The notes under the pieces: model-generated
The model's input: the letters and a program-made list of their open reading frames with translations, nothing else
Told to the model about the DNA's origin: nothing
Databases searched by the model: none
Assembly (NCBI RefSeq): GCF_000698575.1
Contig: NZ_JFHD01000037.1
Coordinates: forward strand, 42,592-66,591
Direction of reading: 5' to 3'
Origin: Caballeronia zhejiangensis
Lineage (GTDB): Bacteria; Pseudomonadota; Gammaproteobacteria; Burkholderiales; Burkholderiaceae
DNA length: 24,000 nt
Made by a program: the position numbers and the translations under genes
Part shown: one piece after another, positions 5,774 through 23,497 of the stretch
How the letters are laid out: every line of letters starts with the position of its first letter
Position numbering within the stretch: the first letter of the stretch is position 1

Positions 5774-5815
5774 GAGCGGTCTGTTGGATTCGTTTCTACC
5801 GGGCGAAACAACGGG

Positions 5816-6880: not shown

Positions 6881-8268
6881 CGCCGTGGCTCCTGTTGGGT
6901 CAGTGATTCGTTCGCTGCCTCGGGCTCAAGGGGGCGCTGCATGGCATCCTCGAGCACACCGGCCGCCTTTTGGGCAGCGACGACGGCATCCAGGTGCGTC
7001 ATTTCGTTTGCCTCGAAGTCGGCCTTGGCCTGCGTGAGCGTCAGACGATCGATGTTGCCGGCGGCGAAACCTGCCAGCTGACTGTCCAGCTGACGCCGTG
7101 CGGTGGTGAGATGGCGTGCAGAGAGCTGCACGGCGTCAACGCTCGCCCGATAGTGGGCGAGGGCACGATCCAAATCACCGAGAATCGAATCCTGCAAGGC
7201 CGCCGTGCGTGCCGCGGCTTCGTTGCGCTTCGCCTCGGCCTGCGCGATGTTCCCCTGGTTCTGGTCGAAGATGGGAAGCGTGATGCCCGCAAGTCCGAAG
7301 CCGATTTTGTGCGTACCGGTGTCGTATGTATAGCCGGGTCCGAGATGGATATCGGGATACTGTTTGGCCACTTCGAGCTGAAGCGCCGACTCGGCCGCCG
7401 CGTATTCGGCCAGCGAGGCAAGCAGATCAGCACGATGGAAAATAGCGTCGCGTTGCGCGTCAGCGGCAGGCGGCGCTGACGGTGCCGTACCGAACTCGTC
7501 GAGGCTGAACTGGGCGCCGTCGAGCGCGGCCACCGGCACACCGATCGCCGACGCCAGTTGCGCAAGCGCATCCTGCTGCGCGCTTTGGGCCGCAGCCAGA
7601 TCAGCCCGCGCCTGTGTTGATGCGAGAACGGCCGCGTCGACGTCCGGTCCTGAGTTTTCGCCGACTGATCGGCGCTTGCTGACCATCCGAACGACCTGCT
7701 GCAGTGCTTCTGCCTTGCGCGACAGATCTACACCGCGCTCGCGCGCGGCGTACAGGGCGAGTAGCGCATCCCGAACTTGTCCGCGAACTCTCCATGCTTC
7801 GTTGCCTATTGAAAGGCGTGCGGCGTCCGACAGATGCGACGCCTGATCGACACGGTAGCCGCGCTTGCCCGCCGTCTCGATTGGAATATCAAGGGCAGGG
7901 CCCCAGATGAAGGGCGCGCCCGGACCAGGATTGGGCGTGGCGAACTGGAACGGCAACTGAAGGACCGGGTTCGGCATCGCGTCGGCAACCTGAATGCCGG
8001 CTTTCGCGGTGCCCCATTGAGCGCGTGCGACATCGAGCGCGGGACTGTAGTACCACGCTGCGAGTGTCAGCGTCCGTTCGTCCCATCGGGCGATCGGCCA
8101 TGGCTGGACGTCGTGACCGAGTGCCTTCGTGAGAAACGCGCGCAAGTCCTCGCTCGCGAGTGAGCGCTGCTCAAACTGTTGGGCCAGTTGATCAGGCGCG
8201 ATCGGCCGTGCGTGGTAGGACGCACAACCGGTGAGTAAGGTAAGGACAATCAGTATCGCGCGGCGCAT
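6877..8268 (-). CDS. Outer membrane factor lipoprotein (TolC/NodT family) of the RND efflux system
   Basis: ATG at 8268 gives MRRAILIVLTLLTGC with a lipobox (LTGC). The ORF track's longer start at 8280 is a TTG. Two TolC-like repeats with A/Q-rich coiled coils are present, and the position is the first structural gene of the efflux operon. Confidence 0.88.
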   Translation of the reverse strand: MRRAILIVLTLLTGCASYHARPIAPDQLAQQFEQRSLASEDLRAFLTKALGHDVQPWPIARWDERTLTLAAWYYSPALDVARAQWGTAKAGIQVADAMPNPVLQLPFQFATPNPGPGAPFIWGPALDIPIETAGKRGYRVDQASHLSDAARLSIGNEAWRVRGQVRDALLALYAARERGVDLSRKAEALQQVVRMVSKRRSVGENSGPDVDAAVLASTQARADLAAAQSAQQDALAQLASAIGVPVAALDGAQFSLDEFGTAPSAPPAADAQRDAIFHRADLLASLAEYAAAESALQLEVAKQYPDIHLGPGYTYDTGTHKIGFGLAGITLPIFDQNQGNIAQAEAKRNEAAARTAALQDSILGDLDRALAHYRASVDAVQLSARHLTTARRQLDSQLAGFAAGNIDRLTLTQAKADFEANEMTHLDAVVAAQKAAGVLEDAMQRPLEPEAANESLTQQEPRR

Positions 8269-8369
8269 TCCGGCATCCAAGGGTCTCCCGGCCGCCGGGG
8301 CGGACCGCTCATGACCCGGATGCTACGCACCCAGTTGTGAAATTTTCGTCAACAAGGTGGCTCTCAGTC

Positions 8370-9659
8370 CTACGCGGCGCTCGCGGGTTCCGCCAGGGGC
8401 AGGCTCAGCGACACGCGCGTGCCCTGATGCTGCTCGCTTTCGATCCGGATCGCCCATCCATGCCGGTCGCAGATCTTCTTGACGATCGACAGGCCAATAC
8501 CGAATCCCTGCCTTTCGGACGGCGTTCGCGAGGCCTGATAAAGTCTGTCGAAAACGTGCGGCAGCGCATGCTCAGGAATGCCCGAGCCGGTGTCTTCGAT
8601 GTGCAGCCGCCCGTGCGCGTAGGAAAAGCGCACACAGCCACGATCGGTGTACCGCAGCGCATTGTCGGTCAGATTTGACAGGACGATCGCCAAAGCGGAG
8701 CCGTTCGCTTTGACTCGAACCCTGCTATCGACGTCAATCACCGTCTGCACGCCGCTGGCGGCAAAGCGCTTCACAAATGGCGCGAGCGTGGTCCTGATCA
8801 AGCGCGTGAGATCGACCGGCTCGACGCCCTGAGCAGAATCGTCGCGGGCAAGCATGAGGAGCGCGTTGACGAGTTCGTGCATGCTGTCCGCCGCGCAGTT
8901 GATCTGGGCAAGCCGGGCGCGCGACTTGCCGCTGATTCCCGGATCCTGTTCCAGCAGTTCGCAGCTGGTCTTGATCGCCGTGAGCGGCGTGCGCAGTTCG
9001 TGGCTCACGTCGCCGGTGAACTCTTTCTCCCGCGCGATCATTTCCGCCATGCGCCGATGATAGTCGTTGAAGGCCTCGACCAGCCCGATGAGCTCGGCTT
9101 CGTCATATCTGCCTGGATTGATCAAAGCCGTGCTTTCGTGCCGCAGCGCCTTGACCTGGCGGGCAAGGCCCGCGACCTGCCGCACCAGCAGTCCCGCGAC
9201 GCCGTACGAAAGCCAGACCGTCAGCAGCGCAAAGAGGCCCGTGCCAGCCATCAGCACGTTGATCATCTCCTTGAAATGCTTTTCGTAGGCGCTGAAGTCG
9301 TAGACACGATAGAAGCGCGCCCCTCCGATCGCGGCGATGGCAACGTGAATCTCCCGACCGCCGACGATGATCTCATGCGTTCCGGCTGGCATCATGGCGA
9401 CGCGAGATGGCAGCGCCTGCGATGACTTGTCCGCTGCCGACACGTAGCCGCCGAGGCGCTGGTCGAAGGGCGGCAACAGTGACGGATTTGCCTGGTAGCT
9501 TCGCAGCACGCTGACCATATCATCGTGGATCAACGCGGCAATGAGCCTTTCCTCTTGCGCTTCGGCAAGTACCCTGACGCCCAGCGCCTGGGCGATGAGC
9601 AGGACGATCGTCAGCGCCGAGAAAACCAGCGCGACCTTGAGGCGCAGGCTACTTCGCAT
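8370..9659 (-). CDS. Two-component sensor histidine kinase (2 TM, periplasmic loop, HAMP, HisKA, HATPase_c)
   Basis: 429-aa ORF with an H-box FTGDVSHELRTPLT, an N-box LSNLTDNALRY and G-boxes EDTGSGIP / GFGIGLSIV. It overlaps the response regulator stop by 11 bp. Confidence 0.92.
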   Translation of the reverse strand: MRSSLRLKVALVFSALTIVLLIAQALGVRVLAEAQEERLIAALIHDDMVSVLRSYQANPSLLPPFDQRLGGYVSAADKSSQALPSRVAMMPAGTHEIIVGGREIHVAIAAIGGARFYRVYDFSAYEKHFKEMINVLMAGTGLFALLTVWLSYGVAGLLVRQVAGLARQVKALRHESTALINPGRYDEAELIGLVEAFNDYHRRMAEMIAREKEFTGDVSHELRTPLTAIKTSCELLEQDPGISGKSRARLAQINCAADSMHELVNALLMLARDDSAQGVEPVDLTRLIRTTLAPFVKRFAASGVQTVIDVDSRVRVKANGSALAIVLSNLTDNALRYTDRGCVRFSYAHGRLHIEDTGSGIPEHALPHVFDRLYQASRTPSERQGFGIGLSIVKKICDRHGWAIRIESEQHQGTRVSLSLPLAEPASAA

Positions 9660-10338
9660 CGGTGTCGCGGGCGACGAGCCGGTAACCGAGCCCGTGGACG
9701 GTTTCGATCAACTCTGCCTCGCCTCGTTGCGTCAGCGCCTTGCGCAGCGTGTAGATGTGCGCGCGCAACGTGTCGCTGTCAGGCTGCTCGTCGCCCCAGA
9801 CCTCTGATTCAAGCTCGGCCCGGCCGAATACCCGGCCCGGCGCTTGCATCATGATTCGCAGCAGCTGCAGGCATTTCGGCTGCAGCTTGATGAGTCGGCC
9901 CGCACGCTCGACCCCAAGCGATGTCAGATCGAGTCGGACATCCGCAACCCGTAGTTCTTGGGCGGCGACTTCGCCTCTGTAGCGTTTGATCAGCGCACCG
10001 AGCCGGGCGCCCACTTCTCGCAAGGAAAACGGCTTGACCAGGTAGTCGTCGGCCCCATGCATGAAGCCGGCGAGCCTGTCGTCGAGCGCGTCCCTGGCCG
10101 TGAGCATCAACACGGGCGTATCGCGATGCGCTTCTTCGCGCAGCTTTCGGCACAGCGTGAGGCCGTCCATGCACGGAAGCGACAAATCGAGCAGGATGGC
10201 ATCCCACGAAACGGCGACCGCCATCTCCAGACCAGCCTGACCGTTGGAGGCGTAGTCGACCACGTACCCGTTCGCTTCAAGATAGTCGTACAGGTTCGCG
10301 GCAATTGACGCATCGTCCTCGACAACAAGCACTTTCAT
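9649..10338 (-). CDS. OmpR/PhoB-family response regulator
   Basis: 229-aa ORF. The receiver domain shows MKVLVVEDD...ILLDLSLPCMDG...ADDYLVKPF, followed by a winged-helix C-terminus (LRAHIYTLRKAL...IETVHGLGYRL). Confidence 0.95.
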   Translation of the reverse strand: MKVLVVEDDASIAANLYDYLEANGYVVDYASNGQAGLEMAVAVSWDAILLDLSLPCMDGLTLCRKLREEAHRDTPVLMLTARDALDDRLAGFMHGADDYLVKPFSLREVGARLGALIKRYRGEVAAQELRVADVRLDLTSLGVERAGRLIKLQPKCLQLLRIMMQAPGRVFGRAELESEVWGDEQPDSDTLRAHIYTLRKALTQRGEAELIETVHGLGYRLVARDTDAK

Positions 10339-10513: not shown

Positions 10514-11623
10514 TCAAGCGGCAAGTGTTCGCATACGCGTCAGGTTGTAGCCAACCTGGGTCAGCACGAAGAGCTGGTCTACGCGTTCAAGTCCCCGACA
10601 CATCGCTTGTCGAATTCGCCCGACCGTCTTGCCCCATCCAAACACCTGCTCAATCCGTTTACGTTTTTGCTGGCTCACCGCGTAGCTTGGCCAACGTGTA
10701 GTTCGCTCATCAATCGCTGAGCCTCCTGAGCGCCCTTCGTTTTGCGCCACATGAGGCGTGACGCGATTCGAGCGACAACTGGCTACGAAGCCGGCGGTGT
10801 CATAGTTCTTATCCGCACCGACCGTGATGCCGCTCGGTGCGACACTCGCAGCATCGGCAAGCATCTGCGCCGCGCAGTCTCGCTCGGCGGTGCCGGTCGC
10901 CAGCGTCACCTGCGCGTTGACAACCAGTCCGTGTCGGTTATCGGTCAATACATGGCCCATATAACAGAGCATCGCTCCCGTTCCCTTGCTCTTGCGAAAC
11001 AGGCGCGCCTGCTCGTCCGTCGTGGACTGGTGCGTTTCGTTACTGCGTTTTTGCCCATGCCAATTGTCATTCGGTGCGGGCGGTTCGTCTGGAGGCGCAT
11101 CGTCGCCGCTCGGACTCGCCTTGGGCACGAAGCTCTTATGCCCGGCCCACGCCTGAATCAAAGTGCCATCGACGCTGAAATGCTCGCCAGAGAGATAGCC
11201 TCGCTCGCGGGCCGTCTCGACCGTCTCGTTGAAGAGCAACACCAGTACATCGTGTTCGAGCAAGCGGTCGCGATTCTTGCTGAACGTCGAATGGTCCCAC
11301 ACCGTTCCGTCCATCGGCAGACCGACGAACCAGCGGAACAACATGTTGTAAGAAATCTGTTCCATTAACATCCGTTCGCTGCGAATTGAGTACAACACCT
11401 GCAGCAACAGCGCCCGAACTAACTTCTCCGGTGCAATGCTTGGTCGGCCACCTCTCGCGTCTGCCTCGTACATTCGCGCGAACACATCATCCATGCGCTT
11501 GAGCGAGTCATTGAGCCATGTACGAATCGGACGCAACGGATGGTCCTTCGGCACGAAATCATCAAGCTTCAACACCGTGAACATCGACTCGGTAAAACTA
11601 TCGCTGCCGCGCATCCGTTCCAT
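10514..11623 (-). CDS. IS5-family DDE transposase
   Basis: The sequence MERMRGSDSFTESMFTVLKLDDFVPKDHPLRPIRTWLN...YNMLFRWFVGL...GADKNYDTAGFV...TPHVAQN...YAVSQQKRKRIEQVFGW is the pattern of IS5-type transposases (N-terminal DUF772-like region plus DDE_Tnp_1). The start is ambiguous: GTG 11659, ATG 11623 or ATG 11614. Confidence 0.9.
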   Translation of the reverse strand: MERMRGSDSFTESMFTVLKLDDFVPKDHPLRPIRTWLNDSLKRMDDVFARMYEADARGGRPSIAPEKLVRALLLQVLYSIRSERMLMEQISYNMLFRWFVGLPMDGTVWDHSTFSKNRDRLLEHDVLVLLFNETVETARERGYLSGEHFSVDGTLIQAWAGHKSFVPKASPSGDDAPPDEPPAPNDNWHGQKRSNETHQSTTDEQARLFRKSKGTGAMLCYMGHVLTDNRHGLVVNAQVTLATGTAERDCAAQMLADAASVAPSGITVGADKNYDTAGFVASCRSNRVTPHVAQNEGRSGGSAIDERTTRWPSYAVSQQKRKRIEQVFGWGKTVGRIRQAMCRGLERVDQLFVLTQVGYNLTRMRTLAA

Positions 11624-11681
11624 CTCGCTCTCGTGAATGACATCAGATTCAACGTTCACCCTTTTATTCAGGATGACCGTT

Positions 11682-11814: not shown

Positions 11815-12372
11815 TCAAAAGGCGTTGTCTGCGCCGCTGCCTCGGCGCAGGGAAGGTAAGATCCGCGGAAGGACGTTTTTTGACTTCAAAGCCCAGTGCG
11901 TTAGTGCTCCTAGTACGTGCAATCCGACCAATGCAGCCAAGCCATATGCTGCTAACGAGTGAAGTTCCCCCAGCCACTTCGATAAATCACGGCTCTGTTG
12001 GACAATGATCGGTAGAGAAAAAAAGCCGAAAAAGCGCGCGGCGTGGCCGGCGGCATTAGTCTTCATCCAACCAAGCAACGGAATAGCCACCATCAACACA
12101 TAAAGCACATGATGGACCGCTTTTTCGGCAAAGCGAGCGGCTGTACCAACAGCGTTGATCGACCGTGGCAGCATATGTCGCGCCCTGAGCCGGTTTGCAA
12201 GGCGGACGGCCGCAAGTCCAAGTATGAGAATACCAATTGACTTGTGAAGCGCAATTAGATTTTCATGGTCGTCTAACATCAGGCCGATAAACAAATTGCC
12301 AATAAGTGCTACCGCCACTAGCCAATGCAGAAGAATGACCGACAGAGGATATCGCGTAACCTTTTTCATCAT
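11815..12372 (-). CDS. cybB: Cytochrome b561 family protein (CybB-like, 4-TM di-haem)
   Basis: 185-aa ORF containing RYPLSVILLHWLVAV...ALHKSIG...VHHVLYVLM...LHSLAAYGLAALVGLHVLGAL, which fits the conserved His pattern of the PF01292-type family. GAAGAGG lies 6 nt upstream of ATGATG. Confidence 0.88.
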   Translation of the reverse strand: MMKKVTRYPLSVILLHWLVAVALIGNLFIGLMLDDHENLIALHKSIGILILGLAAVRLANRLRARHMLPRSINAVGTAARFAEKAVHHVLYVLMVAIPLLGWMKTNAAGHAARFFGFFSLPIIVQQSRDLSKWLGELHSLAAYGLAALVGLHVLGALTHWALKSKNVLPRILPSLRRGSGADNAF

Positions 12373-12405: not shown

Positions 12406-12780
12406 TCAGCTAAGCAATTTGTGGTAGCGCTTCTTCGTACCGTTGATTTGGAGCAGTGCTCGCTTTGCGTCGCTCATATTGTTCGCCTGGATCGCCTTCT
12501 CGACCTGTGCCAGTTCCTCCCGCAGGGCCTGCATGCCTTCGTCGTACGTGCGCTGATCATCGTGATAGGACTCGCGGCTCGCCTGCCGCGCGTCGCCTTC
12601 GAACCTCGTCACATAGCCCCGCAGTTCAGGCATTGTGGTACTCGCCAGTGCGCCCTGCATCGCGCGCTTCATGTCCTTCATCAGCGTCTTGATTTCGCCA
12701 GCGTGCGCTTGTGGCGCGGCGGCAAGAAGTGAGGCACACAGCAGCGCGCAGAGGTTCATGTAAAGCCGGGGTTTTGCCAT
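12406..12780 (-). CDS. cybC: Cytochrome b562 family periplasmic protein
   Basis: ATG at 12780 gives the signal peptide MAKPRLYMNLCALLCASLLAAAPQAHA. The mature protein has an N-terminal Met-containing helix (IKTLMKDMKRAM) and a C-terminal KKRYHKLLS, comparable to E. coli b562 ...RNAYHQKYR (Met/His haem ligands). It lies 33 bp upstream of the b561 gene on the same strand. Confidence 0.78.
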   Translation of the reverse strand: MAKPRLYMNLCALLCASLLAAAPQAHAGEIKTLMKDMKRAMQGALASTTMPELRGYVTRFEGDARQASRESYHDDQRTYDEGMQALREELAQVEKAIQANNMSDAKRALLQINGTKKRYHKLLS

Positions 12781-13044
12781 GGCGTTCGATCCAGTAACAA
12801 TAGTAAGTCTGACGGCTTTCAAAACCGCAGGCTAGTAGAGCGTCAGCACTGGCCTGCAATCGTAAAGAAAGGTGTGACCGTCGGAATGCGTGCTCGTGAG
12901 GAGGCAGTCGCTCCCGCCAAGAGAAAATCATCTATAGGGTTGTTTCTTTCAAGTTTGTTTCAAGACCTGGACGCGAATGCCTGAACGAATTGGTCTCGCT
13001 CGAGCCCGGAATGTGCCACGAAGCGAGTGCGCAAACCCGTTGAT

Positions 13045-13071
13045 CCAAAAAGAGCCCGGCGGATGCCGGGC
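13045..13071 (-). terminator. Rho-independent terminator (minus strand)
   Basis: The minus strand reads GCCCGGC-atcc-GCCGGGC followed by TCTTTTT: a 7-bp all-GC stem, a 4-nt loop and a T-run. The plus-strand side lacks a T-run, so it is directional. Confidence 0.6.
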
Positions 13072-13314
13072 ATAAAGGACAGCCGTGCCGTTTTAATGTC
13101 ACGACTGCCGCGTGGCTTGACGAAACATACCGTTCACTATCCATCCGCCTTGTTTCTTGCCTTCACCTACCTTGTGCCGCGCCACCCGTCGTCGCCGACC
13201 GTGGAATTTGCAAGAGTCGATTTAGTTGTCGCAACGCCCACGATCCCATCGGGACGGTACCCGATTACAGATGTCCACGAGTGGGCTCAACCGTCGCCAT
13301 ACTGCAGGCCGATA

Positions 13315-13331
13315 GTTAACGAAAGCTTAAG
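13315..13331. promoter_or_regulatory. Orphan PmrA-box-like direct repeat GTTAAC-gaaag-CTTAAG
   Basis: Hexamer-N5-hexamer with an 11-bp period, located in a gene-less gap. It has the same architecture as the boxes at 15969 and 16367. Confidence 0.4.
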
Positions 13332-13502
13332 CGAAGCCATGCCGCTAAAACCAGTTGCGCGCTACTTCCGCCGTGGACTTGGTCTCGGATGTCAGCGCGT
13401 ATGGGCTCTGGCTGGAGAATCCGACCGCCACGCTGCAAAGTCGGTTGCGCAAGTTTCCTGGACCGACGGACAGCCGTAGGTGAAGCGAGCCCGGCGGCGA
13501 TG

Positions 13503-14888
13503 TTAACTGTTCTCACGCAAGCGCGGCTCATCGCTTCTTTCTGCAACGCACACATGCGGAATGCGCGCGACTGGGAAGCAGACGCGTACGGTCAGGCCAC
13601 GACCTTCGAGGCCATGTGCCAGAGTGATCGAGGCATGATGCTGTTCCGCGATGCGGCGGACAATCGAGAGACCCAGGCCGCTACCTGTTGCTGCGTGGCC
13701 GTTCCCGCGGTAGAACCGCTCCCATACGCGCGTATGGTCCACCTCTGGAATGCCGGGCCCAGTGTCGCGTACCTCCAGCACCGGCCGACCCTCGTGACCG
13801 TAGACTTCTACGTCGACTCGCGAGCCAGCTCCTCCATACCGAATCGCGTTGTCGACGAGGTTGTTCAACAGAATACGCAAGTTTTCTGCGTTTCCGCTGA
13901 CCGTCAATTTTTTACCTTCTGCGAGACCGAGGTCGACATTGTTGGATTCTGCGAATTTGGATCGCTCGCTTACAACGGAGCGAGCAAGAGCAGTGAGGTC
14001 GAATTGGCAGGTCTCAGCGAGCTGCGAGTCCGGCGCGAGCCTTGCCAGTGTCAGAAGCTGCTCAGACAAACGCGAGAGGCGAGTGGCACCCATTCTGAGT
14101 TGGGCAGTGATTTCCTCTCGCTCGGCGACGCTTGATGCCCGCTCCAACAACTCAGCTTGCAGTCCAAGACCCATGATGGGCGTTCGAAGTTCATGTGCGG
14201 CATCAGCAATGAAGTGTTTTTGCGCGGTGAATGCGTGATCGAGCCGAAGAAGAAGATCGTTGAGCGCATCGACAAGCGGTTTCACTTCACCGGGCATTGC
14301 CGCGGTGTCGATTGGCTGCATATTGTTCGCGTCGCGCCGTTTGAGATTTGCTGCGATCTCGCGCAGAGGCCGCAAACCGTAGCCAATCCCGAACCAAAGG
14401 AAGAGGGCGAGCAGCGGTATCAGCGACAGCACGGGCCAAAAGAGATGCATCGCGATTTCGGCGACTGCTTCCCAGCGGGCCTTCCTCAACTGCGCAACAC
14501 GCACCAACACGTCACCTTCTCGCGTAACGAACGAATGCCATAGTTGCCCACCCACCATGATATCGGCGAGGCCGGCGCCGGCCGGCGGCGGCAAACTCGA
14601 ATCGGGATCGCTGCTGAAAATCGGTGTAGAGCCGCGCCAGACCTGAAGCAGCACACCGTGCGATTGTTCGCCAGACATCCGGTCATCGTCGCTTCGCTGC
14701 AGACCGGTCAATGACACGTGATTGTCCTCATCGACCACCACATGCCGGCCGATCACCTTCAACTGGTCACTGAGGACTTCATCGAGTTCATACAATGCCC
14801 CCCAATAGGTAGCAGCACTTGCCAACAGGCCCGCTAAAAGGGTTGCGGGAAGCAGCCAGAGCACCAGTCGTCTGCGAAGGGATTTCAC
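13503..14888 (-). CDS. Two-component sensor histidine kinase (QseC/PmrB-like architecture)
   Basis: 461-aa ORF with two TM segments flanking a ~130-aa periplasmic domain, a HAMP domain, an H-box FIADAAHELRTPI, an N-box LNNLVDNAIRYG and G-boxes RDTGPGIP / GSGLGLSIV. The GTG start overlaps the regulator stop (GTGA). Confidence 0.92.
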   Translation of the reverse strand: MKSLRRRLVLWLLPATLLAGLLASAATYWGALYELDEVLSDQLKVIGRHVVVDEDNHVSLTGLQRSDDDRMSGEQSHGVLLQVWRGSTPIFSSDPDSSLPPPAGAGLADIMVGGQLWHSFVTREGDVLVRVAQLRKARWEAVAEIAMHLFWPVLSLIPLLALFLWFGIGYGLRPLREIAANLKRRDANNMQPIDTAAMPGEVKPLVDALNDLLLRLDHAFTAQKHFIADAAHELRTPIMGLGLQAELLERASSVAEREEITAQLRMGATRLSRLSEQLLTLARLAPDSQLAETCQFDLTALARSVVSERSKFAESNNVDLGLAEGKKLTVSGNAENLRILLNNLVDNAIRYGGAGSRVDVEVYGHEGRPVLEVRDTGPGIPEVDHTRVWERFYRGNGHAATGSGLGLSIVRRIAEQHHASITLAHGLEGRGLTVRVCFPVARIPHVCVAERSDEPRLRENS

Positions 14889-15547
14889 GCGATCTCCCCA
14901 ATTTGATAGCCGACCCCTCGCACGTTCCGGATCGCTTGTGCACCCAGCTTACGTCGGAGGTTGTGTACATGAACTTGGATCGCGTTGCTCTCAATCTCCT
15001 CGTTCCAGCCGTACAGGCGCTCCTCGAGTTGCTCTCGAGTAACGACAACGCTGGGATTTCGCATCAACTCATGAAGCAGAGCAAACTCTCGCGCCGTCAC
15101 ACCCACTTCCACACCACGTAAAAGGACGCAGTGACGGGCCGGATCGAGTTCGATCACCCCCGCTTGCAGTGTCGTCTGTGCCCGGCCTGCGTGTCGACGG
15201 TTCAACACGCGGATGCGAGCGAGTAGCTCCTCGAGCGCGAACGGCTTGACCATATAGTCATCGGCTCCTCCGTCCAAACCGCCAACACGATCTGCGATGC
15301 CGTCGCGGGCTGTAATAATTATCACAGCGGTCGCGTCGTTGCGGGCCCGCAGTCTCTGAAGAAGTGTCAGACCATCTTGCTTCGGCAGTCCCAGATCGAG
15401 CAAAACCAGGCCGTACGAGGTGGTGCGCAGGGCGATGGAACCCGCTTCCCCGTCCTGTACCCAGTCGACGGCCATTCCTTCCCGCCGTAACCCGTACTGC
15501 AACCCGCTGCCAATTAGAACATCGTCTTCGACCAGCAGTACCCGCAT
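14885..15547 (-). CDS. OmpR-family response regulator (QseB/PmrA-like)
   Basis: 220-aa ORF with MRVLLVEDD...LVLLDLGLPKQDG...ADDYMVKPF and a winged helix (IQVHVHNLRRKL...IRNVRGVGYQI). AAGGAA SD lies upstream of the ATG. Confidence 0.95.
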   Translation of the reverse strand: MRVLLVEDDVLIGSGLQYGLRREGMAVDWVQDGEAGSIALRTTSYGLVLLDLGLPKQDGLTLLQRLRARNDATAVIIITARDGIADRVGGLDGGADDYMVKPFALEELLARIRVLNRRHAGRAQTTLQAGVIELDPARHCVLLRGVEVGVTAREFALLHELMRNPSVVVTREQLEERLYGWNEEIESNAIQVHVHNLRRKLGAQAIRNVRGVGYQIGEIA

Positions 15548-15571
15548 ATCCGATTCCTTAAAAGCCCGGAG

Positions 15572-15886
15572 TCAGTGGTGACTGTACAGGGACTTCCAGT
15601 TACTAGCTGGCCGCGCACCGCCCGATTGTGACAAGCCGCTCGGCGTACCACCCACGTCTCGACTAGCAATGTTTGGCGATTGCGCTTGCGCCCCAATACG
15701 CGCCTCCGCCGCTTGAATGTCGGCCGGATATTTCACTTTGTTGGGTTTATACCCAGCTCGCTCCAGTTGAATCAACTCGTTGCGTACTTGTGCACGGGAA
15801 ACAGGGGTGTTCGATGCCTGTGCAAACGTTAGAGCCGGTGCGCTCAGCACCAGCGCCAGCGCCAAAACCTTGAATGTCGTGTTCAT
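15572..15886 (-). CDS. DUF4148 domain-containing secreted protein (paralog 1), first gene of the TCS operon
   Basis: ATG at 15886 is preceded by GGAGAG. Signal peptide MNTTFKVLALALVLSAPALTFAQ, then the DUF4148 core VSRAQVRNELIQLERAGYKP...YPADIQAAEAR. The stop is 24 bp before the regulator start. The 5' extension of the longer track ORF (to 16021) looks spurious. Confidence 0.85.
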   Translation of the reverse strand: MNTTFKVLALALVLSAPALTFAQASNTPVSRAQVRNELIQLERAGYKPNKVKYPADIQAAEARIGAQAQSPNIASRDVGGTPSGLSQSGGARPASNWKSLYSHH

Positions 15887-15968
15887 GTTCGATTCTCTCC
15901 AGTCAGGTGGACGTACAGCTGCGAGCGTTAGCGCGGGCAGCCCGTATTCCGCAGCTTGAGGGCGAAGA

Positions 15969-15985
15969 GTTAAGACATCGTTAAC
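15969..15985 (-). promoter_or_regulatory. PmrA-box-like direct repeat GTTAAC-gatgt-CTTAAC (read on minus strand)
   Basis: Hexamer-N5-hexamer with an 11-bp period, 83 bp upstream of the start codon of DUF4148 paralog 1 and the TCS operon. Confidence 0.45.
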
Positions 15986-16366
15986 GCGGCGAATGTTGAG
16001 AGTTTTGTGCCCATGACCCACGTGTCACAACGCTTTCTGAGGAATGAAGCGCAACCCGTTGTTCCAACTGCAGACCATGGCGCGTTTCTGCCGACCGACC
16101 TCTGAAGTCCGATAGGAGACGCCAAGGGCAAGAATCGATCGTCGCGGTGGTGCTGGGACTGCCCAACGACAAACAACGCGACGTTGTTGGCGTAGCGGAG
16201 GTCAGCCCTCGAATCCCTCATCAAACTCACCGTACACTGACTAGGTAATTACCTGAGTCTTAGGCGACACTTAGCGCTGGAAACCTTCACGCCGCGATTT
16301 CAAGCAGCGGTTACTGCTGCTGGACGGTGTCCCACCTGCCGGATCGCGATCCAGCCTCCTTGACTG

Positions 16367-16383
16367 CTTAACCAAACCTTAAG
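16367..16383 (+). promoter_or_regulatory. PmrA-box-like direct repeat CTTAAC-caaac-CTTAAG
   Basis: Hexamer-N5-hexamer with an 11-bp period, 75 bp upstream of the start codon of DUF4148 paralog 2. It is immediately preceded by TTGACT (16360-16365). Confidence 0.45.
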
Positions 16384-16407
16384 TATGGCTTGTTAGCTTT
16401 TCTCCAT

Positions 16408-16457: not shown

Positions 16458-16775
16458 ATGAAACTGCTTCTCACATCTATTATCGTCGCCACACTGGCCT
16501 CCCCGATTGCGTCGATTGCGCAAACAGCCCAGCCACAGCTGAGCCGCGCACAGGTGCGCGCTGACCTCCGACAGATCGAGCAGGCCGGGTACAACCCCGC
16601 CCGCCGCGACGATGTCAGCTATCCAGCGGACATTCAAGCAGCCGAAATGCGCGTTGCAGCGCGAGACGGCTTGGATGGCGGTAGATCGAGCATGGGAGGC
16701 GCTCCGACTTCCACTTCCGAATCGGGTCACGCTACCGCGAATCACGGTCGGAATTCGCTCTTCAGTCACCATTGA
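16458..16775 (+). CDS. DUF4148 domain-containing secreted protein (paralog 2)
   Basis: AGGAGA SD lies 8 nt upstream. Signal peptide MKLLLTSIIVATLASPIASIAQ, core LSRAQVRADLRQIEQAGYNP...YPADIQAAEMR, and a C-terminus SLFSHH that matches SLYSHH in paralog 1. Confidence 0.85.
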   Translation: MKLLLTSIIVATLASPIASIAQTAQPQLSRAQVRADLRQIEQAGYNPARRDDVSYPADIQAAEMRVAARDGLDGGRSSMGGAPTSTSESGHATANHGRNSLFSHH

Positions 16776-17193: not shown

Positions 17194-17451
17194 ATGAGAA
17201 GCTCGTTGACATTTACGTTGGCGTTGCTGCTTGCGGTGGCGGGCGCGTCGAGGCTTAAAGCGCAGGAGATTCAAGGAAAGACACGGCAGCAGGTCATAGA
17301 GGAGACCAGACAGGCGTGGGTAGACGGATGGCTTCCCTATAACCGACACGACTATCCGTTTAGCGCAGCAACGATTGAACGAAATAAGGAGCGGTATCAG
17401 AGGCTTCACCCTGGTGTCAGAGCGAAAAGCCCTTGGCTTGGCCATGGATGA
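17194..17451 (+). CDS. DUF4148-like small secreted protein (paralog 3, divergent)
   Basis: CAGGAG SD. Signal peptide MRSSLTFTLALLLAVAGASRLKAQ, then KTRQQVIEETRQAWVDGWLPYNRHDYPFSAATIERNKERY, resembling the DUF4148 pattern (tR.qV..El..A...G.lp....YP.sa). Confidence 0.7.
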   Translation: MRSSLTFTLALLLAVAGASRLKAQEIQGKTRQQVIEETRQAWVDGWLPYNRHDYPFSAATIERNKERYQRLHPGVRAKSPWLGHG

Positions 17452-17873
17452 GCAAAGCGATCCAAGCGCGGCAACATTGTGGTCCGAGGTCGGCCTGCCT
17501 CTGCGAGATACGGGGGGGCGCACCGATCATCTCTGGTTTAGAGAGCACGGATAGCGACTCAGCGCCGCAAACGGGCCTATCGCTGCCTTACCAGGGAGCA
17601 TGGATGCGAATGTGCGCGTCGTCGGTCGTCAAGCCCGCCCCTCTGGTGTATATCCGATTTAACGGGTGGCGGGTGCACCGACGTGCGCCCACGTCGGCTC
17701 TGGGTATCCCGCGTTTTGTTGATCTCGCGCAACTCGTGGCACGTGCGACACACTTATTCTGGTGTGCGGACTCGTCGGCAAAAGAGAACACGGGGCGCGA
17801 CAACTCGGAAACGGTGAACGGCGAGCGCACCAAAGTGCGCCAGGGTTCAGCAAATTGGCGATCAGGAAAACCA

Positions 17874-18092
17874 ATGTTCAAACGAATAATGGTTGGGATC
17901 GATGGAAGCCAGGCCGCCATCGGGGCACTCGCCGAGGCAATCCGCCTTGGGGAGAGCGAAAGCGCTACTGTTCGTGCTGTCAGTGTCGTCGAACCCGAGG
18001 CCGACACGATCACCCCGTTCTCCGGCTTCGGTCACCCAGTGCCGGTTGCTCGATCACTTCGGGACGCGGCGCAGGCTGGGCTCGCGCCATGA
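17874..18092 (+). pseudogene. Universal stress protein (UspA family) N-terminal fragment, 72 codons
   Basis: AGGAAA SD, then [41 protein letters not shown], the typical Usp beta1-alpha1-beta2. The ORF stops after 72 aa, before the C-terminal G-x2-G-x9-G(S/T) ATP-binding region. Its TGA overlaps the PPK2 ATG (ATGA). It could instead be a genuine short ORF. Confidence 0.55.
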
Positions 18093-19000
18093 CGGAGATC
18101 AATTCAGAAAATTTTCGCGTTCGCGAGGCCGACGAGGTCGATCTTGACAAGTGGCCGACGCGCGTCAAGCCCGCCTATAAATCGAAGGATGAATATCGCG
18201 CGATGCTGGGAGACCACACAGGAAGGCTTGTCAAACTTCAAGACTTGCTCTACGCGGACAAGCGTTATGCGGTGCTATTCATCTTTCAGGCGATGGACGC
18301 TGCAGGAAAGGATGGGGCGATCAAACACGTCATGTCGGGCGTCAACCCTCAGGGTTGCCAGGTGTTCAGCTTCAAACATCCAAGCACGGAGGAACTCCAG
18401 CACGATTTCCTTTGGCGCACCACTCGCGACCTCCCCGAGCGCGGCCGTATCGGTATCTTCAACCGGTCGTACTACGAGGAGGTTCTGATCCTGCGGGTGC
18501 ATCCTGAAATTCTGCAAGGCGAAAGACTATCGACCGGCTGCGGCCGGGGCGAGGCGCTCTGGATGGGCAGGTACCGGTCCATCAAGGATCTCGAAGATCA
18601 TCTGTATCGGAATGACACGCGTATCGTGAAATTCTTCCTGCACCTCTCGAAGGAGGAACAGCGCAGGCGCTTCCTCGCTCGCATTGACGAGCCGAACAAG
18701 AACTGGAAATTCAGCACGGCGGACATTGAGGAGAGGAAGTTCTGGGGGCAGTACATGGATGCGTATGAAAGGTGCATGAGTGCGACGAGCACGGACTCCG
18801 CCCCATGGTACATCGTGCCCGCGGATGACAAGGAGGACGCGCGGCTTATCGTGTCGCAAATCATTCTCGATACGCTGGACACCTTGAAATTGCAGTACCC
18901 GGCGACGACTGAGGCGCGACGTAAGGAGCTGTTGGAGATTCGCGAACAGCTCGCTCAAGAGAATGACACTTCACGAGATCTGTCAGTTCGGACTGCCTGA
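18089..19000 (+). CDS. ppk2: Polyphosphate kinase 2 family protein (polyphosphate:nucleotide phosphotransferase)
   Basis: 303 aa from ATG 18089 (MTEINSENF...). P-loop-like [16 protein letters not shown] is present, along with [26 protein letters not shown] and [11 protein letters not shown], all PPK2 hallmarks. The 412-aa track ORF from 17762 carries a spurious Arg-rich extension. Confidence 0.92.
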
Positions 19001-19189: not shown

Positions 19190-21571
19190 ATGGCAACCGC
19201 CGCTCATAGTCACACCGGGTTTGGACAAGTACCACCAGCGCTTCAGACCACCGATCATTCGATGGGTCTCGGTTCGGCGGAGGTGCAGCGTCGCCTTCAG
19301 CAGTTCGGCGCTAACGCTATCGAGGATGCTCGCACGCCACTATGGCAGCAGTTCCTCGGCAAGCTCTGGGGACCCGTGCCCTGGATGCTCGAAGCGGTGA
19401 TCGCGCTTCAGATTCTGCTCCGGCGCGACCAGGAGGCGTTTGTCATTTTATTTCTGCTCGCGTTCAACGCGATTGTCACCTTCTTGCAGGAGCGTCGCGC
19501 GCAGAATGCTCTGACCCTGTTGCGCCACCAACTGCAGGTCAGCGCGCGCGTGCTGCGCGACGCAGGGTGGAGGCGCTTGGCGGCCGCGCAGCTGGTGCCC
19601 GGCGACGTAGTACACGTGCGAGCAGGTGATCTTGTTCCGGCCGATCTCGTGCTATTCGACGGAGCAGTCGTACTCGACCAATCGGCGCTGACCGGAGAAT
19701 CCCTCGCCGTCGATGCAGGCCCCGGGCAACCTGCGTACGCCGGTTCCGTTGTGCGCCAGGGCGAAGCCAGCGGCGAGGTCACCGCCACCGGATCACGCAC
19801 CTACTTCGGACGGACCGCGGAGCTGGTCCGCACGTCCAGCGCGCCCAGCCATATGCAGCGAACGATTTTTTCGATCGTCAAGCGTTTGGTCGGGTTCGAT
19901 CTTGTGCTTATCGCGTTCGTCGTCTTCTATGCCGCGACGCATGATCTCCCGATGGCCGATACCGTGGTGTACACGTTGTTGCTACTTGTCGCATCGGTTC
20001 CTGTTGCGTTGCCGGCGACTTATACGCTAGCCACGGCCGTCGCCAGTACTCGCTTGGCGAAACAAGGTGTGCTGGTTACCCGGCTTCCCGCGGTAGAGGA
20101 AGCGGCAGCGATGGACACCTTGCTCTCGGACAAGACTGGCACGCTGACACAGAACGTCCTGTCGGTCACAGAGGTGAAAGCGCTGGCCGCCGTCGACGAC
20201 GCCGAAGTCTTACGCGCTGCGGCGCTGGCGAGCGATGAGGCCTCTCAGGATCCGTTGGACCTGGCAATTCTCGCCGCTTACAAAGCTGGTGAGCCGACCG
20301 AGCCCCTGCCCAAACGCATCAGCTTTCGGCCGTTCGATCCGGCGACGCGCTCAAGCGAAGGAGTCTATGCAGTTGACGGCGACGAGTGGCGCGTGTTGAA
20401 GGGCGCGGCTAGCGCGGTATTCGCCCAATGCGGAACCGACGCAGCCCAACGCGAAACCGCGCAGGCAGCACAGCAGGTGCTTGCAGAGGGCGGTGCGCGC
20501 GTGCTGGCGATCGCGGCCGGCCCGGCAGGGGCCATTCGGCTTCTCGGTTTGCTCAGTCTGGCCGATCCGCCACGGGTCGACGCAGCAAGACTGATTGCGA
20601 AACTCGGCCAACTCGGTGTGCGCGTGATTATGGCAACCGGCGACGCCCTGGAGACGGCACGAGCCATCGGAAAGCAACTCGGTGTCGGGACGCGCGTCTG
20701 TGTGGCCTGTAGCGGCGACCTAAGTCAACCAGAGCACTGCGATATCTTCGCCCGAGTACTGCCCCAAGACAAGCATGCAATCGTACGGGCTTTGCAACAG
20801 GCTGAACATGTCACGGGCATGACGGGCGATGGTGTCAATGACGCGCCGGCGCTTCGGCAGGCCGAACTTGGTATAGCCGTCGCCAGCGCGACGGACGTAG
20901 CGAAGGCTGCAGCCGGCATAGTCCTGACGGATCCAGGTTTATCTGGCATCCTTACCGTTATCACCATGGGGCGCGATGTGCACCGTCGCATGCTGACTTA
21001 CATTCTTAACAAAATCGTGAAGACGCTTGAGATTGTCGTGTTTCTCACGCTCGGTCTTTGGCTGACCGGCGGCTTCGTGATCTCGGCGCGTTTGATCGTG
21101 CTGCTGCTGTTTGCCAACGACTTTGTGACGATGAGCATCGCGGTTGACCGGGTGCGGCCGGCGAGCCACCCTCAGCGCTGGCAAGTCGGACAGCTCGTCG
21201 GAGCTGCTGCTCTGCTCGCTGCGGTCTCGCTTGTTTTCTCGCTATCGTTGTACGGCCTCGCACGCACCCAGTTAGGTCTGACCTCGACGCAGATGCAAAC
21301 TGCGGTGTTCCTGATGCTGGTATTCACGACCCAGGCCAACGTTTATGTACTGCGCAACGATGGCCGGTTATGGACATTGGCCCCGGGATTTGCCATGGCA
21401 TCTGCCAGCGTTGCAGACGTGATGCTCATTAGTGTAATGGCCGTGACTGGGACGCTGATGACGCCGATTCCGATCGAACTGGTCATCGTCATGGTCGGCG
21501 TCGTTGCGCTCTTCGCGCTTGTTCTCGACCAAGTCAAGCGGATCGTGTTTCAACGCTTCTCGCTCACTTGA
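19190..21571 (+). CDS. P-type ATPase, type IIIA (plasma-membrane H+-ATPase-like)
   Basis: 793-aa ORF with TGES (ALTGESLAV), a TM4 segment ASVPVALPATYTLATAV, the phosphorylation site SDKTGTLT, and MTGDGVNDAPALRQAELGIAV. It is strongly collinear with plant/fungal PMA-type pumps. The start is uncertain: ATG 19190 or ATG 19262, neither with a clear SD. Confidence 0.9.
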   Translation: MATAAHSHTGFGQVPPALQTTDHSMGLGSAEVQRRLQQFGANAIEDARTPLWQQFLGKLWGPVPWMLEAVIALQILLRRDQEAFVILFLLAFNAIVTFLQERRAQNALTLLRHQLQVSARVLRDAGWRRLAAAQLVPGDVVHVRAGDLVPADLVLFDGAVVLDQSALTGESLAVDAGPGQPAYAGSVVRQGEASGEVTATGSRTYFGRTAELVRTSSAPSHMQRTIFSIVKRLVGFDLVLIAFVVFYAATHDLPMADTVVYTLLLLVASVPVALPATYTLATAVASTRLAKQGVLVTRLPAVEEAAAMDTLLSDKTGTLTQNVLSVTEVKALAAVDDAEVLRAAALASDEASQDPLDLAILAAYKAGEPTEPLPKRISFRPFDPATRSSEGVYAVDGDEWRVLKGAASAVFAQCGTDAAQRETAQAAQQVLAEGGARVLAIAAGPAGAIRLLGLLSLADPPRVDAARLIAKLGQLGVRVIMATGDALETARAIGKQLGVGTRVCVACSGDLSQPEHCDIFARVLPQDKHAIVRALQQAEHVTGMTGDGVNDAPALRQAELGIAVASATDVAKAAAGIVLTDPGLSGILTVITMGRDVHRRMLTYILNKIVKTLEIVVFLTLGLWLTGGFVISARLIVLLLFANDFVTMSIAVDRVRPASHPQRWQVGQLVGAAALLAAVSLVFSLSLYGLARTQLGLTSTQMQTAVFLMLVFTTQANVYVLRNDGRLWTLAPGFAMASASVADVMLISVMAVTGTLMTPIPIELVIVMVGVVALFALVLDQVKRIVFQRFSLT

Positions 21572-21737: not shown

Positions 21738-22862
21738 TCAGGAAACCGACACGCCGAGGAGACGTCCGACACCAAATGTAAAAGCCGCCGCTGCAAGACC
21801 AATGACGATCTGACGAACTGCGGAGAAACCTGCGCTTCTTCCGTTGAATAGCGACGTAAAGACCCCGATCGCTGCAAGCGCAAGGACGCTCAACCCGATG
21901 CATTGCACAATCGCGAATTGACCAGAAGACCATAGGAATGGCATCGCAGGAAAGACCGCCCCGACGGCGAAAAGACAAAATGACACTCCTGCCGCGGACC
22001 ATGGATTCCCGCCTAGCTCGGCTGGATCGAGGCCAAGCTCTTCGCGCGTGAGGGCATCGAGCGCTTTGTCCTTATCTCTCATGATTTGTGACGCGACGCG
22101 ACTTGCTTCTTCGCTGTCGAGCCCCTTCGCCCGATAGATCAAGCGAAGCTCATGCTCTTCTGCTTCAGGCGTGTGCTCCAATTCGTCGGCTTCTTTTTGG
22201 ATCTGTGTCTTCGCCAGCTCCCGGGCATTGGTGACCGATAGCCATTCACCCAGCGCCATGGAGCAGGCGCCGGCAATGATACCGGCAAGTGCCGTCAGGA
22301 GAATCGCCTTGTTTTGGGTACCTGCGCCCGCAACACCCATAATCAGGCAGAAGTTCGACACCAACCCATCGTTGGCACCGAGCACAGCAGCGCGAAGATC
22401 GTTGCCAGAGGATACGCCCCTGTGCCACGACTCGGCATTGGCGATTTCGGCGCCTTTTGTCGCGGCAGGCTTGCCATCGTTCGCCATTGCCTGAACGACG
22501 CTGGCGTGGTGGTGCTCGTCTGCTGACATCTTAGCCGTGTCAGGATTGCCGGCATATTTGTTCCGATCTGCGAATTCAGCGGCAGCGAGCGACGGGAGGA
22601 CAAAGCGTGGGCCGAACGCGCGGACCAGCGCCTTCATCAGTCCCGTCTTAATGCTTGGGCCTGTGCGAACACGTTGATGGTTAGCTCGAAGCTTATCTGC
22701 CCACACTTGAGCGTGCTGCCGCTCCGATGAGGCCAATTCCGCGAATGTCCGCTTTCGGTCCGCCTCCTTTTCGACGCGGGCGAGAGTCTCGTAGATCGCT
22801 GCGCTGTGCAACTCATCAGCTAAGTTTGCGCGATAGCGTCGTAGTTCGTTTTTCGATGCCAT
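21738..22862 (-). CDS. mbfA: MbfA-like protein: N-terminal ferritin-like (erythrin) domain fused to a VIT1/CCC1 iron transporter domain
   Basis: From ATG 22862 the sequence reads MASKNELRRYRANLADELHSAAIYE...SSERQHAQVW (two ExxH motifs), then RAAVLGANDGLVSNFCLIMGVAGA and C-terminal TM helices typical of VIT1. The 48 upstream codons of the track ORF look spurious. Confidence 0.87.
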   Translation of the reverse strand: MASKNELRRYRANLADELHSAAIYETLARVEKEADRKRTFAELASSERQHAQVWADKLRANHQRVRTGPSIKTGLMKALVRAFGPRFVLPSLAAAEFADRNKYAGNPDTAKMSADEHHHASVVQAMANDGKPAATKGAEIANAESWHRGVSSGNDLRAAVLGANDGLVSNFCLIMGVAGAGTQNKAILLTALAGIIAGACSMALGEWLSVTNARELAKTQIQKEADELEHTPEAEEHELRLIYRAKGLDSEEASRVASQIMRDKDKALDALTREELGLDPAELGGNPWSAAGVSFCLFAVGAVFPAMPFLWSSGQFAIVQCIGLSVLALAAIGVFTSLFNGRSAGFSAVRQIVIGLAAAAFTFGVGRLLGVSVS

Positions 22863-23497
22863 AGAGGCTATGCCATGGGATAGACGTAAGACTTTAACCC
22901 GGAAGTGCTTCAATGCGCCGGCAAGACCCTTGGTGCGCCTATAACCAAGAATGGCAATGGTTCGTATTTGCGGACGTCCTTGTCGAGAAAGATGCGATCC
23001 ACGCATCGATTCCGGCTAGACGCTATGGGTTTCTTAAGAATCGCCGACTACAATCACGGCACTGGTTGCTCGAGAAGCCCCCCTCTCGGTGGCGAAGCTC
23101 TCACATACAAGGTCCGTCTTGAAGCGAGATCTCGTCCGCATCGTTCGTGCGCATACAAAGCCGCAGCGCTAGCAGCGATGCTGATGCAACTTACTGAACT
23201 CGCCACTATTCAATGTTTTGGGATTCCGGAGAGGATCTTTGAGCCGCCCCGATTTAGGCTGGCGGTTGCTGCGGCGATGGTCGCATTCGTTGGCGCGTCG
23301 CGGCTTGTCAGCTATCTCGCGTACACGAGTATCAACTGTATCGTCAACGTCGATGCCCGAAACGATTCACCTGACAGCCGAGGCGCGGTAATGCGATTCT
23401 TGAGCCAAATGCATCGTGACTTTACAGGCTCAGCGCCGGCGGCTCCAATTGACCCTGACGCCAGATCCTAACCAATTTGTCCTTTCCGATCGAGCTT

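Follow-up and report, generated by a model that had tools for sequence, protein, structure and literature searches.

In the genome of Caballeronia zhejiangensis, a 24,000-nt stretch of contig NZ_JFHD01000037.1 (positions 42,592 to 66,591, referred to below as the window) encodes a response regulator of the PmrA/QseB clade together with a QseC-like sensor histidine kinase. The non-coding DNA surrounding this two-component system contains three boxes, designated S1, S2 and S3, each built of two TTAA-core hexamers with a centre-to-centre distance of 11 bp (TTAA-N7-TTAA). As judged from sequence comparisons, the three boxes are very probably bound by a dimer of the adjacent regulator, which would act as an activator. 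The non-random occurrence of the boxes, their conservation, the promoter geometry and the conserved DNA-reading residues of the regulator were all computed and are presented below.

In the proposed mechanism the phosphorylated regulator would stand in for the −35 contact and thereby activate transcription, as PmrA does at pbgP and QseB at ygiW-qseBC. S1 would drive the operon of DUF4148a, the regulator and the kinase, which amounts to positive autoregulation, and S2 would drive the divergent gene DUF4148b. S3 would direct minus-strand transcription past the kinase, giving either a non-coding RNA (ncRNA) that ends at 13054-13071 or a transcript reading through into the cytochrome genes b562/b561. 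The scheme is predicted as regards binding itself, the positive sign of the regulation, the signal sensed and what S3 controls.

Occurrence, conservation and promoter position of the boxes

The pattern TTAANNNNNNNTTAA matches the window at exactly three positions (13316-13330, 15970-15984 and 16368-16382), all of them in the non-coding DNA around the one two-component system. Dinucleotide-preserving shuffles of the window contained on average 0.02 matches and none of the shuffles reached three. The TTAA tetramer occurs 20 times in the window and six of these copies make up the three box pairs; no further two copies are 40 bp or less apart anywhere in the window, whatever the spacing. The intergenic DNA of the window amounts to 3.9 kb of 56 % G+C and holds 11 of the 20 tetramers, and when random placement was limited to this DNA none of 200,000 placements yielded three pairs at 11 bp. 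A scan of the window for weaker boxes (up to two core mismatches plus a −10) revealed no further convincing site.

S1 (GTTAACGATGTCTTAAC) ends 83 bp from the ATG of DUF4148a at 15886, S2 (CTTAACCAAACCTTAAG) ends 75 bp from the ATG of DUF4148b at 16458, and S3 lies 172 bp past the stop codon of the kinase, in DNA without a credible open reading frame (ORF). An earlier note, made from the letters of this DNA alone, had claimed that the window contains only these three repeats and that they cluster in non-coding DNA. The pattern count, the shuffles and the intergenic placements confirmed the claim, and the 17-mers, coordinates and two gene distances quoted there proved correct on re-reading of the sequence. 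The likeness to the PmrA box drawn in the same note could be kept in part: the TTAA cores and the 11-bp spacing agree, but the strict consensus YTTAAK-N5-YTTAAK is not matched, since S2 and S3 need one to two mismatches and S1 does not fit within two; the closest parallel is the QseB site, CTTAA-N6-CTTAA. As GTTAAC and CTTAAG are self-palindromic, a direct repeat cannot be read from the hexamers alone, and the orientation of each box was assigned by its flanking −10.

Conservation was assessed in loci with orthologous kinases (60-95 % identity), one genome per species being scanned, from Caballeronia, Paraburkholderia, Herbaspirillum and further Burkholderiaceae. Loci of the Burkholderia cepacia complex were taken from plasmid and secondary-replicon records, and more loci came from exact-protein look-ups with precomputed Pfam calls. 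With a further 80 loci from metagenomes, encoding more distantly related kinases (34-60 % identity), the set reached 105 loci, identified below by L numbers, with a total length of 737 kb. These loci contained 90 exact boxes in comparison to 1.7 expected from first-order Markov simulations, approximately 50 times the background. The boxes and their spacing were kept in orthologous loci of five genera, and in nearly all orthologous loci the first operon gene was preceded, at a distance of 60-140 bp, by an exact or one-mismatch box. The gene behind the box varies: it encodes a DUF4148 protein, the regulator itself (L007, L009) or cytochrome b562 (L010). A box of the S1 type upstream of the operon is kept in L001, L002, L004, L005, L007, L009, L017, L019, L020, L027, L029, L032, L033, L115 and L116, and S2 is kept in L001, L115 and L002. 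In C. concitans (L002:2072-2461, minus strand) the gene after the S2-type box begins as DUF4148, with a signal peptide and LTRAEVRA, and then switches frame; it is either a frameshifted pseudogene or the product of a sequencing error.

The divergent intergenic region was aligned for four loci with kinases that share 81-95 % identity with that of the window. Only two islands are conserved, corresponding to the boxes and their downstream promoters, and the approximately 350 bp between the S1 and S2 islands are scrambled by substitutions and indels. Two checks proposed in the earlier note, on whether the motif exceeds its background frequency and on whether the hexamers and their 11-bp spacing outlast the surrounding intergenic DNA in orthologous promoters, both came out in favour of operators.

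When half-sites were oriented by the −10, the loci closely related to the window preferred GTTAAC-N5-CTTAAG, the ends of the upstream hexamer being G in 17 and C in 18 of 22 boxes; the preference in the distant family is CTTAAG-TCNNN-CTTAAG. Boxes of the close family also precede a TolC/RND efflux operon in L017, L019, L020 and, with one mismatch, L115, a gene for a DUF347 membrane protein in L006 and one for a cupredoxin-like protein in L032. In P. lacunae (L033:5199-5226) three half-sites stand in register upstream of the regulator gene, GTTAGC-N5-GTTAAC-N5-GTTAAC, an arrangement that could permit alternative or extended occupancy.

The position of the −10 was determined by recording, for each exact box and in both orientations, every nAnnnT hexamer starting 0-30 nt past the 17-mer. 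Such hexamers were counted 67 times at 10 nt and 34 times at 11 nt, and only 3-12 times at each of the other offsets. In at least one orientation 86 of the 90 boxes carried the hexamer at 10 or 11 nt and only nine did so in both, at a background of about 3 % per offset. All three boxes of the window lie at or flank the −35 position and keep this fixed distance to a −10-like hexamer (Table 1). A generic sigma-70 scan detected none of the three promoters and no recognisable −35 was found at any of them, as would be expected of activator-dependent promoters. Given a 17-bp spacer, the −35 hexamer would land between the two TTAA cores. The box would span approximately −40 to −24, which matches the range of PhoB at pstS, where the PhoB site extends from −41 to −25 and the pmra-box lies four bp downstream of the PhoB site (PMC10570014). 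By inference from these positions, the distance from the −10 up to the box described here would exceed that of the pmra-box at pbgP by some 2-3 bp, which puts the box nearer to the PhoB position.

The regulator and competing explanations

The regulator could be aligned without gaps (E = 3e-53) to Klebsiella pneumoniae PmrA in the structures 4S04 and 4S05, which represent its DNA complex, and 8JO2, its transcription-activation complex (PMC4660055, PMC10570014). In PmrA the residues N188, N196 and R210 contact bases specifically, and T187, V192 and H195 are also listed as TAA readers (PMC4660055, PMC10570014). The regulator of the window has S187, N188, V192, H195, N196 and R210, only T187 being altered (to S), and thus is a PmrA/QseB-clade regulator with the TAA-reading residues. 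RR2 (9649-10338), the regulator of a second two-component system in the window, was considered as a binder of the boxes and ruled out by D, A, Y and T at positions 188, 192, 195 and 196.

The NCBIfam models for PmrA and QseB score the regulator at 245 and 229 bits, respectively, both under the equivalog cut-offs (345 for QseB). The kinase reaches 232 bits with the QseC model, the cut-off being 475, and the match is confined to residues 122-437. Regulator and kinase are therefore not QseB/QseC orthologues at the equivalog level, and they belong to the same clade.

The reading proposed in the earlier note, that the boxes are operators of the adjacent regulator, with an autoregulated operon and a small local regulon of DUF4148 proteins, emerged as the best one in view of the conservation, the frequency and the base-reading residues. 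The part that had to be revised concerns S3, which appears to be a minus-strand promoter and not an orphan operator. Several observations weigh against the assignment of the boxes to the adjacent regulator. The −10 of S1 is weak. Only one-mismatch boxes were found in L003, L018, L021, L022, L031 and L034, and none in L030. The regulator, being under both equivalog cut-offs, is a member of the PmrA/QseB clade and an orthologue of neither protein. Genomes of this group also carry several PmrA/QseB-like paralogues each, so a regulator encoded outside the window may cross-bind.

The last point leads to the explanation that the boxes are genuine regulatory sites recognised by another PmrA/QseB-like regulator with its gene elsewhere in the genome, the adjacency being incidental or a matter of cross-regulation. 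PmrA does bind the qseBC promoter in E. coli (PMC5053249), and distant paralogous systems share the nearly identical box CTTAAG-N5-CTTAAG, which means that the specificity of paralogues may be low. Nevertheless, in more than 100 loci of many genera the sole constant neighbour of the box is a regulator-kinase pair of this type, and the only other regulator of the window is without the TTAA-reading residues. Moreover, the upstream half-site GTTAAC of the close family (17/22) is distinct from the distant CTTAAG, which suggests co-evolution with the local regulator. With these observations on the other side, a foreign regulator is considered improbable.

It is also quite improbable that the regulator binds the boxes and represses transcription by blocking access to the −35 region. 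In favour of repression, the boxes lie over the promoter core, where a bound regulator can also repress, and both activation and repression of its own promoter have been reported for QseB (PMC5053249). Activation is preferred since the lack of a conserved −35-like hexamer combined with mostly weak −10s is the signature of activator dependence, and since the geometry resembles that of the PmrA and PhoB activation complexes (PMC10570014). The boxes could also have arisen by chance or composition, for example from AT-rich restriction-type palindromes (HpaI and AflII sites) gathering in the intergenic DNA of a GC-rich genome; in favour of this, TTAA is rare in the window, with 11 of the 20 copies outside genes. 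Such an origin is effectively refuted by the intergenic randomisations, the spacing and position kept across genera and the fixed −10 distance.

Site S3 and the region behind the kinase

On sequence grounds we regard S3 as a genuine predicted promoter of the regulon. A −10 at the required distance is present in its minus orientation only, hence transcription should run in the direction of the kinase operon, and the start is predicted near 13292. The terminator that follows (Table 1) is the strongest of the region. In C. jiangsuensis (L001) the box, the −10 and the terminator of S3 are intact, identical or near-identical, while the interval between the −10 and the terminator differs by substitutions and by indels of 1, 2 and 6 nt. 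Since indels that are not multiples of three occur and no ORF is conserved between the two species, the interval is non-coding. Searches of 12780-13503 by tblastn with DUF4148, BOF, PepSY, b562, b561, DegP-like and other proteins gave noise only, and no Rfam family reached its gathering threshold anywhere in the window, the S3 leader thus corresponding to no known riboswitch or small RNA (sRNA).

Two results weaken the case for a functional transcript at S3. A blastn search of 72,556 plasmid records with 12790-13500 gave no matches, and no homologue was found outside Caballeronia. The fold z-score of the 245-nt region was −0.96, no better than that of shuffles.

Comparable units are present after the kinase in Paraburkholderia (L003:5527-5722, L006:5595-5790 and L032:7701-7860), where a box is followed at 11 nt by TAAAGT or TACAGT, then by approximately 150 nt without a conserved ORF and by a terminator made of a GC-rich hairpin and a T-run. 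L003 and L006 belong to the same genome and are near-duplicates, hence they are not independent; L032 departs from them after about 150 nt, just ahead of an IS110 transposase gene. The fold z-score of the L003 unit was −1.16, and in both the window and L003 only the terminators stand out. The Paraburkholderia unit is a candidate regulator-dependent sRNA.

The distant loci (L042-L114) differ at this place. An exact CTTAAG-N5-CTTAAG was located in 45 of the 80, mostly within about 100 bp of the kinase stop codon and occasionally overlapping it, and the gene behind these 45 boxes was DegP/HtrA-like (Trypsin_2 and two PDZ domains) in 36 cases and PepSY in two. A similar order is known from B. cenocepacia, in which BCAL2831-BCAL2830-BCAL2829 encode a regulator, a kinase and a periplasmic HtrA and transcription of the cluster is regulator-dependent (PMC5295037). 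The distant metagenomic family, with kinase, box and DegP/HtrA-like gene, is likened to that cluster by gene order, and CTTAAG-N5-CTTAAG looks like the general predicted operator of the Burkholderia-type regulator-kinase-HtrA cluster. The window, in contrast, has no protease gene and its S3 faces ORF-free DNA.

This comparison raises the possibility that S3 alone is a decaying relic, the promoter of a lost gene and functionless today. In its favour, a gene stands behind the post-kinase box in so many distant loci, the window lacks one at that place and the region is lineage-specific. On the other hand, no trace of a protein-coding gene could be detected, C. jiangsuensis has kept the box, −10 and terminator intact whereas the intervening sequence changed, and Paraburkholderia (L003, L006) independently has a similar unit, in which about 150 nt separate the box and −10 from a terminator. 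A relic is therefore thought unlikely. As a rough division, the product of S3 may well be a discrete ncRNA, though at somewhat less than an even chance, and with slightly lower confidence a leader that reads into b562/b561, while a relic comes last as an unlikely outcome. The cytochromes as a target are favoured by L010, where a box lies immediately ahead of b562-b561-regulator-kinase.

DUF4148 proteins, gene neighbourhood and relation to known systems

QseB binds CTTAA-N6-CTTAA flanking the −35 of ygiW-qseBC in Aggregatibacter actinomycetemcomitans, and the site is also found in E. coli qseBC (PMC5053249). The QseBC locus is characterised by a ygiW gene beside qseBC, co-transcribed or divergent and controlled by QseB (PMC5053249). 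The boxes of the window have the same core and spacing, the repeats likewise flank the −35, the operon would likewise be autoregulated, and a gene for a small secreted protein lies upstream of or divergent from the regulator-kinase pair under the same box. The differences are that the secreted protein is DUF4148 and not the OB-fold BOF/YgiW, that two boxed copies are present, one co-transcribed and one divergent, that the family of the window prefers the upstream half-site GTTAAC, and that the regulator and the kinase stay under the NCBIfam QseB/QseC equivalog cut-offs. The acidic motifs (EYRDD type, in the periplasmic domain) that QseC requires to recognise its signal have been listed as absent from the QseC-like sensors of Burkholderiaceae (PMC5053249).

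Two kinds of loci could be distinguished by the secreted protein. In the DUF4148 type (Caballeronia, most Paraburkholderia and Burkholderia plasmids) one or two DUF4148 genes lie ahead of the regulator gene, and further DUF4148 genes nearby carry boxes of their own. In the BOF/YgiW type, found in a Bordetella sp. metagenome-assembled genome (L027), P. lacunae (L033), the B. cenocepacia chromosome (L034) and the metagenomic loci L035 and L038, the BOF/YgiW gene is divergent from the regulator gene across a short intergenic region with one box each way. The kinases of the Bordetella sp., P. lacunae and B. cenocepacia loci are 56-65 % identical to that of the window. No BOF/YgiW gene adjoins the boxes of the window, DUF4148 genes being found there instead, and since orthologous loci have a divergent YgiW at the same position, the system is a module of the QseBC/ygiW type with DUF4148 in the place of YgiW. 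By its sequence and gene order, it is taken to be the Burkholderiaceae counterpart of QseBC/ygiW, in which secreted proteins of the unrelated DUF4148 family occupy the YgiW position.

The DUF4148 proteins linked to the system (in L001-L032 and the window) share the C-terminal tail [LM][YF]xH[HP], for example SLYSHH, SLFSHH, KLYAHH, QLYRHH, SLYGHH and SLYGHP, preceded by a Gly/Ser-rich, apparently disordered stretch. Exceptions are the copies on Burkholderia cepacia complex plasmids that overlap the regulator gene (L017, L020). The third, un-boxed paralogue of the window has another C-terminus without the tail. The family (PF13663) was recognised at 55.4 and 48.6 bits in copies a and b and at 29.4 bits in the third copy, the gathering cut-off being 27.

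The DUF4148 family includes a B. pseudomallei virulence factor, and DUF4148 genes lie beside IrlRS-type systems in that species, a linkage considered possibly coincidental by the authors (PMC7549894). In Achromobacter, DUF4148 also ranked with the most strongly arsenite- and antimonite-induced genes (PMC11719878). The IrlRS/IrlR2S2 systems (BPSS1038, BPSS1996) resemble that of the window in that a secreted DUF4148 is encoded beside an OmpR-family system (PMC7549894). In those cases a CopRS/CzcRS-like system is followed by the DUF4148 gene and the authors suggested no operator, whereas the DUF4148 genes of the window lie upstream and would be tied by a conserved operator to a PmrA/QseB-like regulator. 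More speculatively, and with little confidence in the whole, DUF4148 proteins could be box-controlled periplasmic partners of the QseC-like kinase that displaced YgiW/BOF, the LYxHH tail serving in metal or sensor docking within a feedback similar to the role of CpxP/ZraP, with S3 driving a regulator-dependent sRNA.

The PmrA box, as known from pbgP, ugd and pmrCAB, also consists of two TTAA-core hexamers with a 5-nt gap and replaces or overlaps the −35, and a dimer of the OmpR/PhoB type recognises it in head-to-tail arrangement (PMC4660055, PMC10570014). The regulator of the window keeps the base-reading residues of PmrA; the window differs in having no lipid A modification genes and in the hexamers GTTAAC and CTTAAC, which are unlike YTTAAK. 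A further difference presumably lies in the kinase, with a long QseC-like periplasmic domain as opposed to the short loop of PmrB.

The gene map in Table 1 was prepared from Pfam, NCBIfam and the contig's own gene calls, and the gene assignments of the earlier note were upheld by Pfam and NCBIfam. The kinase protein is 100 % identical to an entry annotated 'MULTISPECIES [Caballeronia]'.

Table 1. Boxes, promoter elements and genes in the 24,000-nt window of C. zhejiangensis
Feature	Position	Strand	Remarks
Box S1	15969..15985	-	GTTAAC-GATGT-CTTAAC; exact match; predicted operator/activator site of the DUF4148a-regulator-kinase operon
−10-like hexamer of S1	15953..15958	-	CAAGCT; 10-nt spacer
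Box S2	16367..16383	+	CTTAAC-CAAAC-CTTAAG; exact match; predicted activator site of divergent DUF4148b
−10-like hexamer of S2	16394..16399	+	TAGCTT; 10-nt spacer
Box S3	13315..13331	-	minus-strand CTTAAG-CTTTC-GTTAAC; exact match; third predicted regulator-dependent promoter
−10-like hexamer of S3	13299..13304	-	CAGTAT; 10-nt spacer; L001 counterpart CAATAT
ORF-free stretch downstream of S3	13045..13292	-	~245 nt; candidate ncRNA or b562-b561 leader/attenuator
Intrinsic terminator	13054..13071	-	GCCCGGC-ATCC-GCCGGGC, then TCTTTTT; invariant in L001
QseC-like sensor histidine kinase	13503..14888	-	Pfam, NCBIfam
Response regulator, PmrA/QseB clade	14885..15547	-	Pfam Response_reg and Trans_reg_C; predicted binder of the boxes
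DUF4148a	15572..15886	-	signal-peptide protein; first gene of the operon; C-terminus SLYSHH
DUF4148b	16458..16775	+	divergent paralogue; C-terminus SLFSHH
Third DUF4148	17194-17451	+	divergent; un-boxed
Cytochrome b562 homologue	12406..12780	-	PF07361; possible distal S3 target
Cytochrome b561	11815..12372	-	Pfam
Insertion sequence (IS) transposase	10514-11659	-	DUF772/DDE
Second two-component system	8370-10338	-	regulator RR2 at 9649-10338
RND efflux operon	2660-8280	-	
DedA/LssY protein	628-2646	-	DedA-LssY fusion
Usp	17604-18092	+	
PPK2	18089-19000	+	
P-type ATPase	19190-21571	+	
VIT1 iron/manganese transporter	21738-23006	-	

The two-component system is embedded among cation and envelope functions (Usp, PPK2, P-type ATPase, VIT1, RND efflux and the DedA-LssY fusion). 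On a Burkholderia plasmid (L020:5361-9236) the genes flanking the orthologue encode PAP2 phosphatases, an MFS transporter and a DedA/PAP2 fusion. Such neighbourhoods hint at a metal or envelope-stress signal.

The IS element separates cytochrome b561 from the second two-component system. It is missing in C. jiangsuensis (L001), where only 138 bp lie between b561 and the regulator of the second system, and its insertion may have split a b562-b561-RR2-HK2-RND unit. The best extra matches in the scan for weaker boxes had different cores, TTGA and TTCA, and probably belong to another regulator. One, at 12948-12964 (minus strand), reads CTTGAA-ACAAA-CTTGAA followed at 11 nt by TATAGA; it lies approximately 170 bp upstream of cytochrome b562, has the same 11-bp periodicity and is retained in C. 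jiangsuensis without its −10. The other, at 8338-8354 (minus strand), reads GTTGAC-GAAAA-TTTCAC followed at 11 nt by TAGCAT and is situated within the 90-bp gap ahead of the outer-membrane efflux gene. Both repeats may be operators of the second regulator, RR2.

The type of motif, its promoter position, the autoregulation and the control of a small secreted partner are already known for PmrA/QseB. New are the half-site variant, the predicted regulon, comprising DUF4148 paralogues, efflux and possibly b562/b561 or an sRNA, and the exchange of DUF4148 and YgiW. The results provide a concrete predicted regulon for an uncharacterised two-component system of Caballeronia and other Burkholderiaceae, and the motif with its fixed −10 spacing can be used directly as a genome-wide regulon predictor. 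They also offer the first, predicted, operator-level link between a regulator and DUF4148, a Burkholderiales-wide secreted family of unknown function. The swap of DUF4148 and YgiW at one position suggests that both families do the same job, which would help to assign a function to both.

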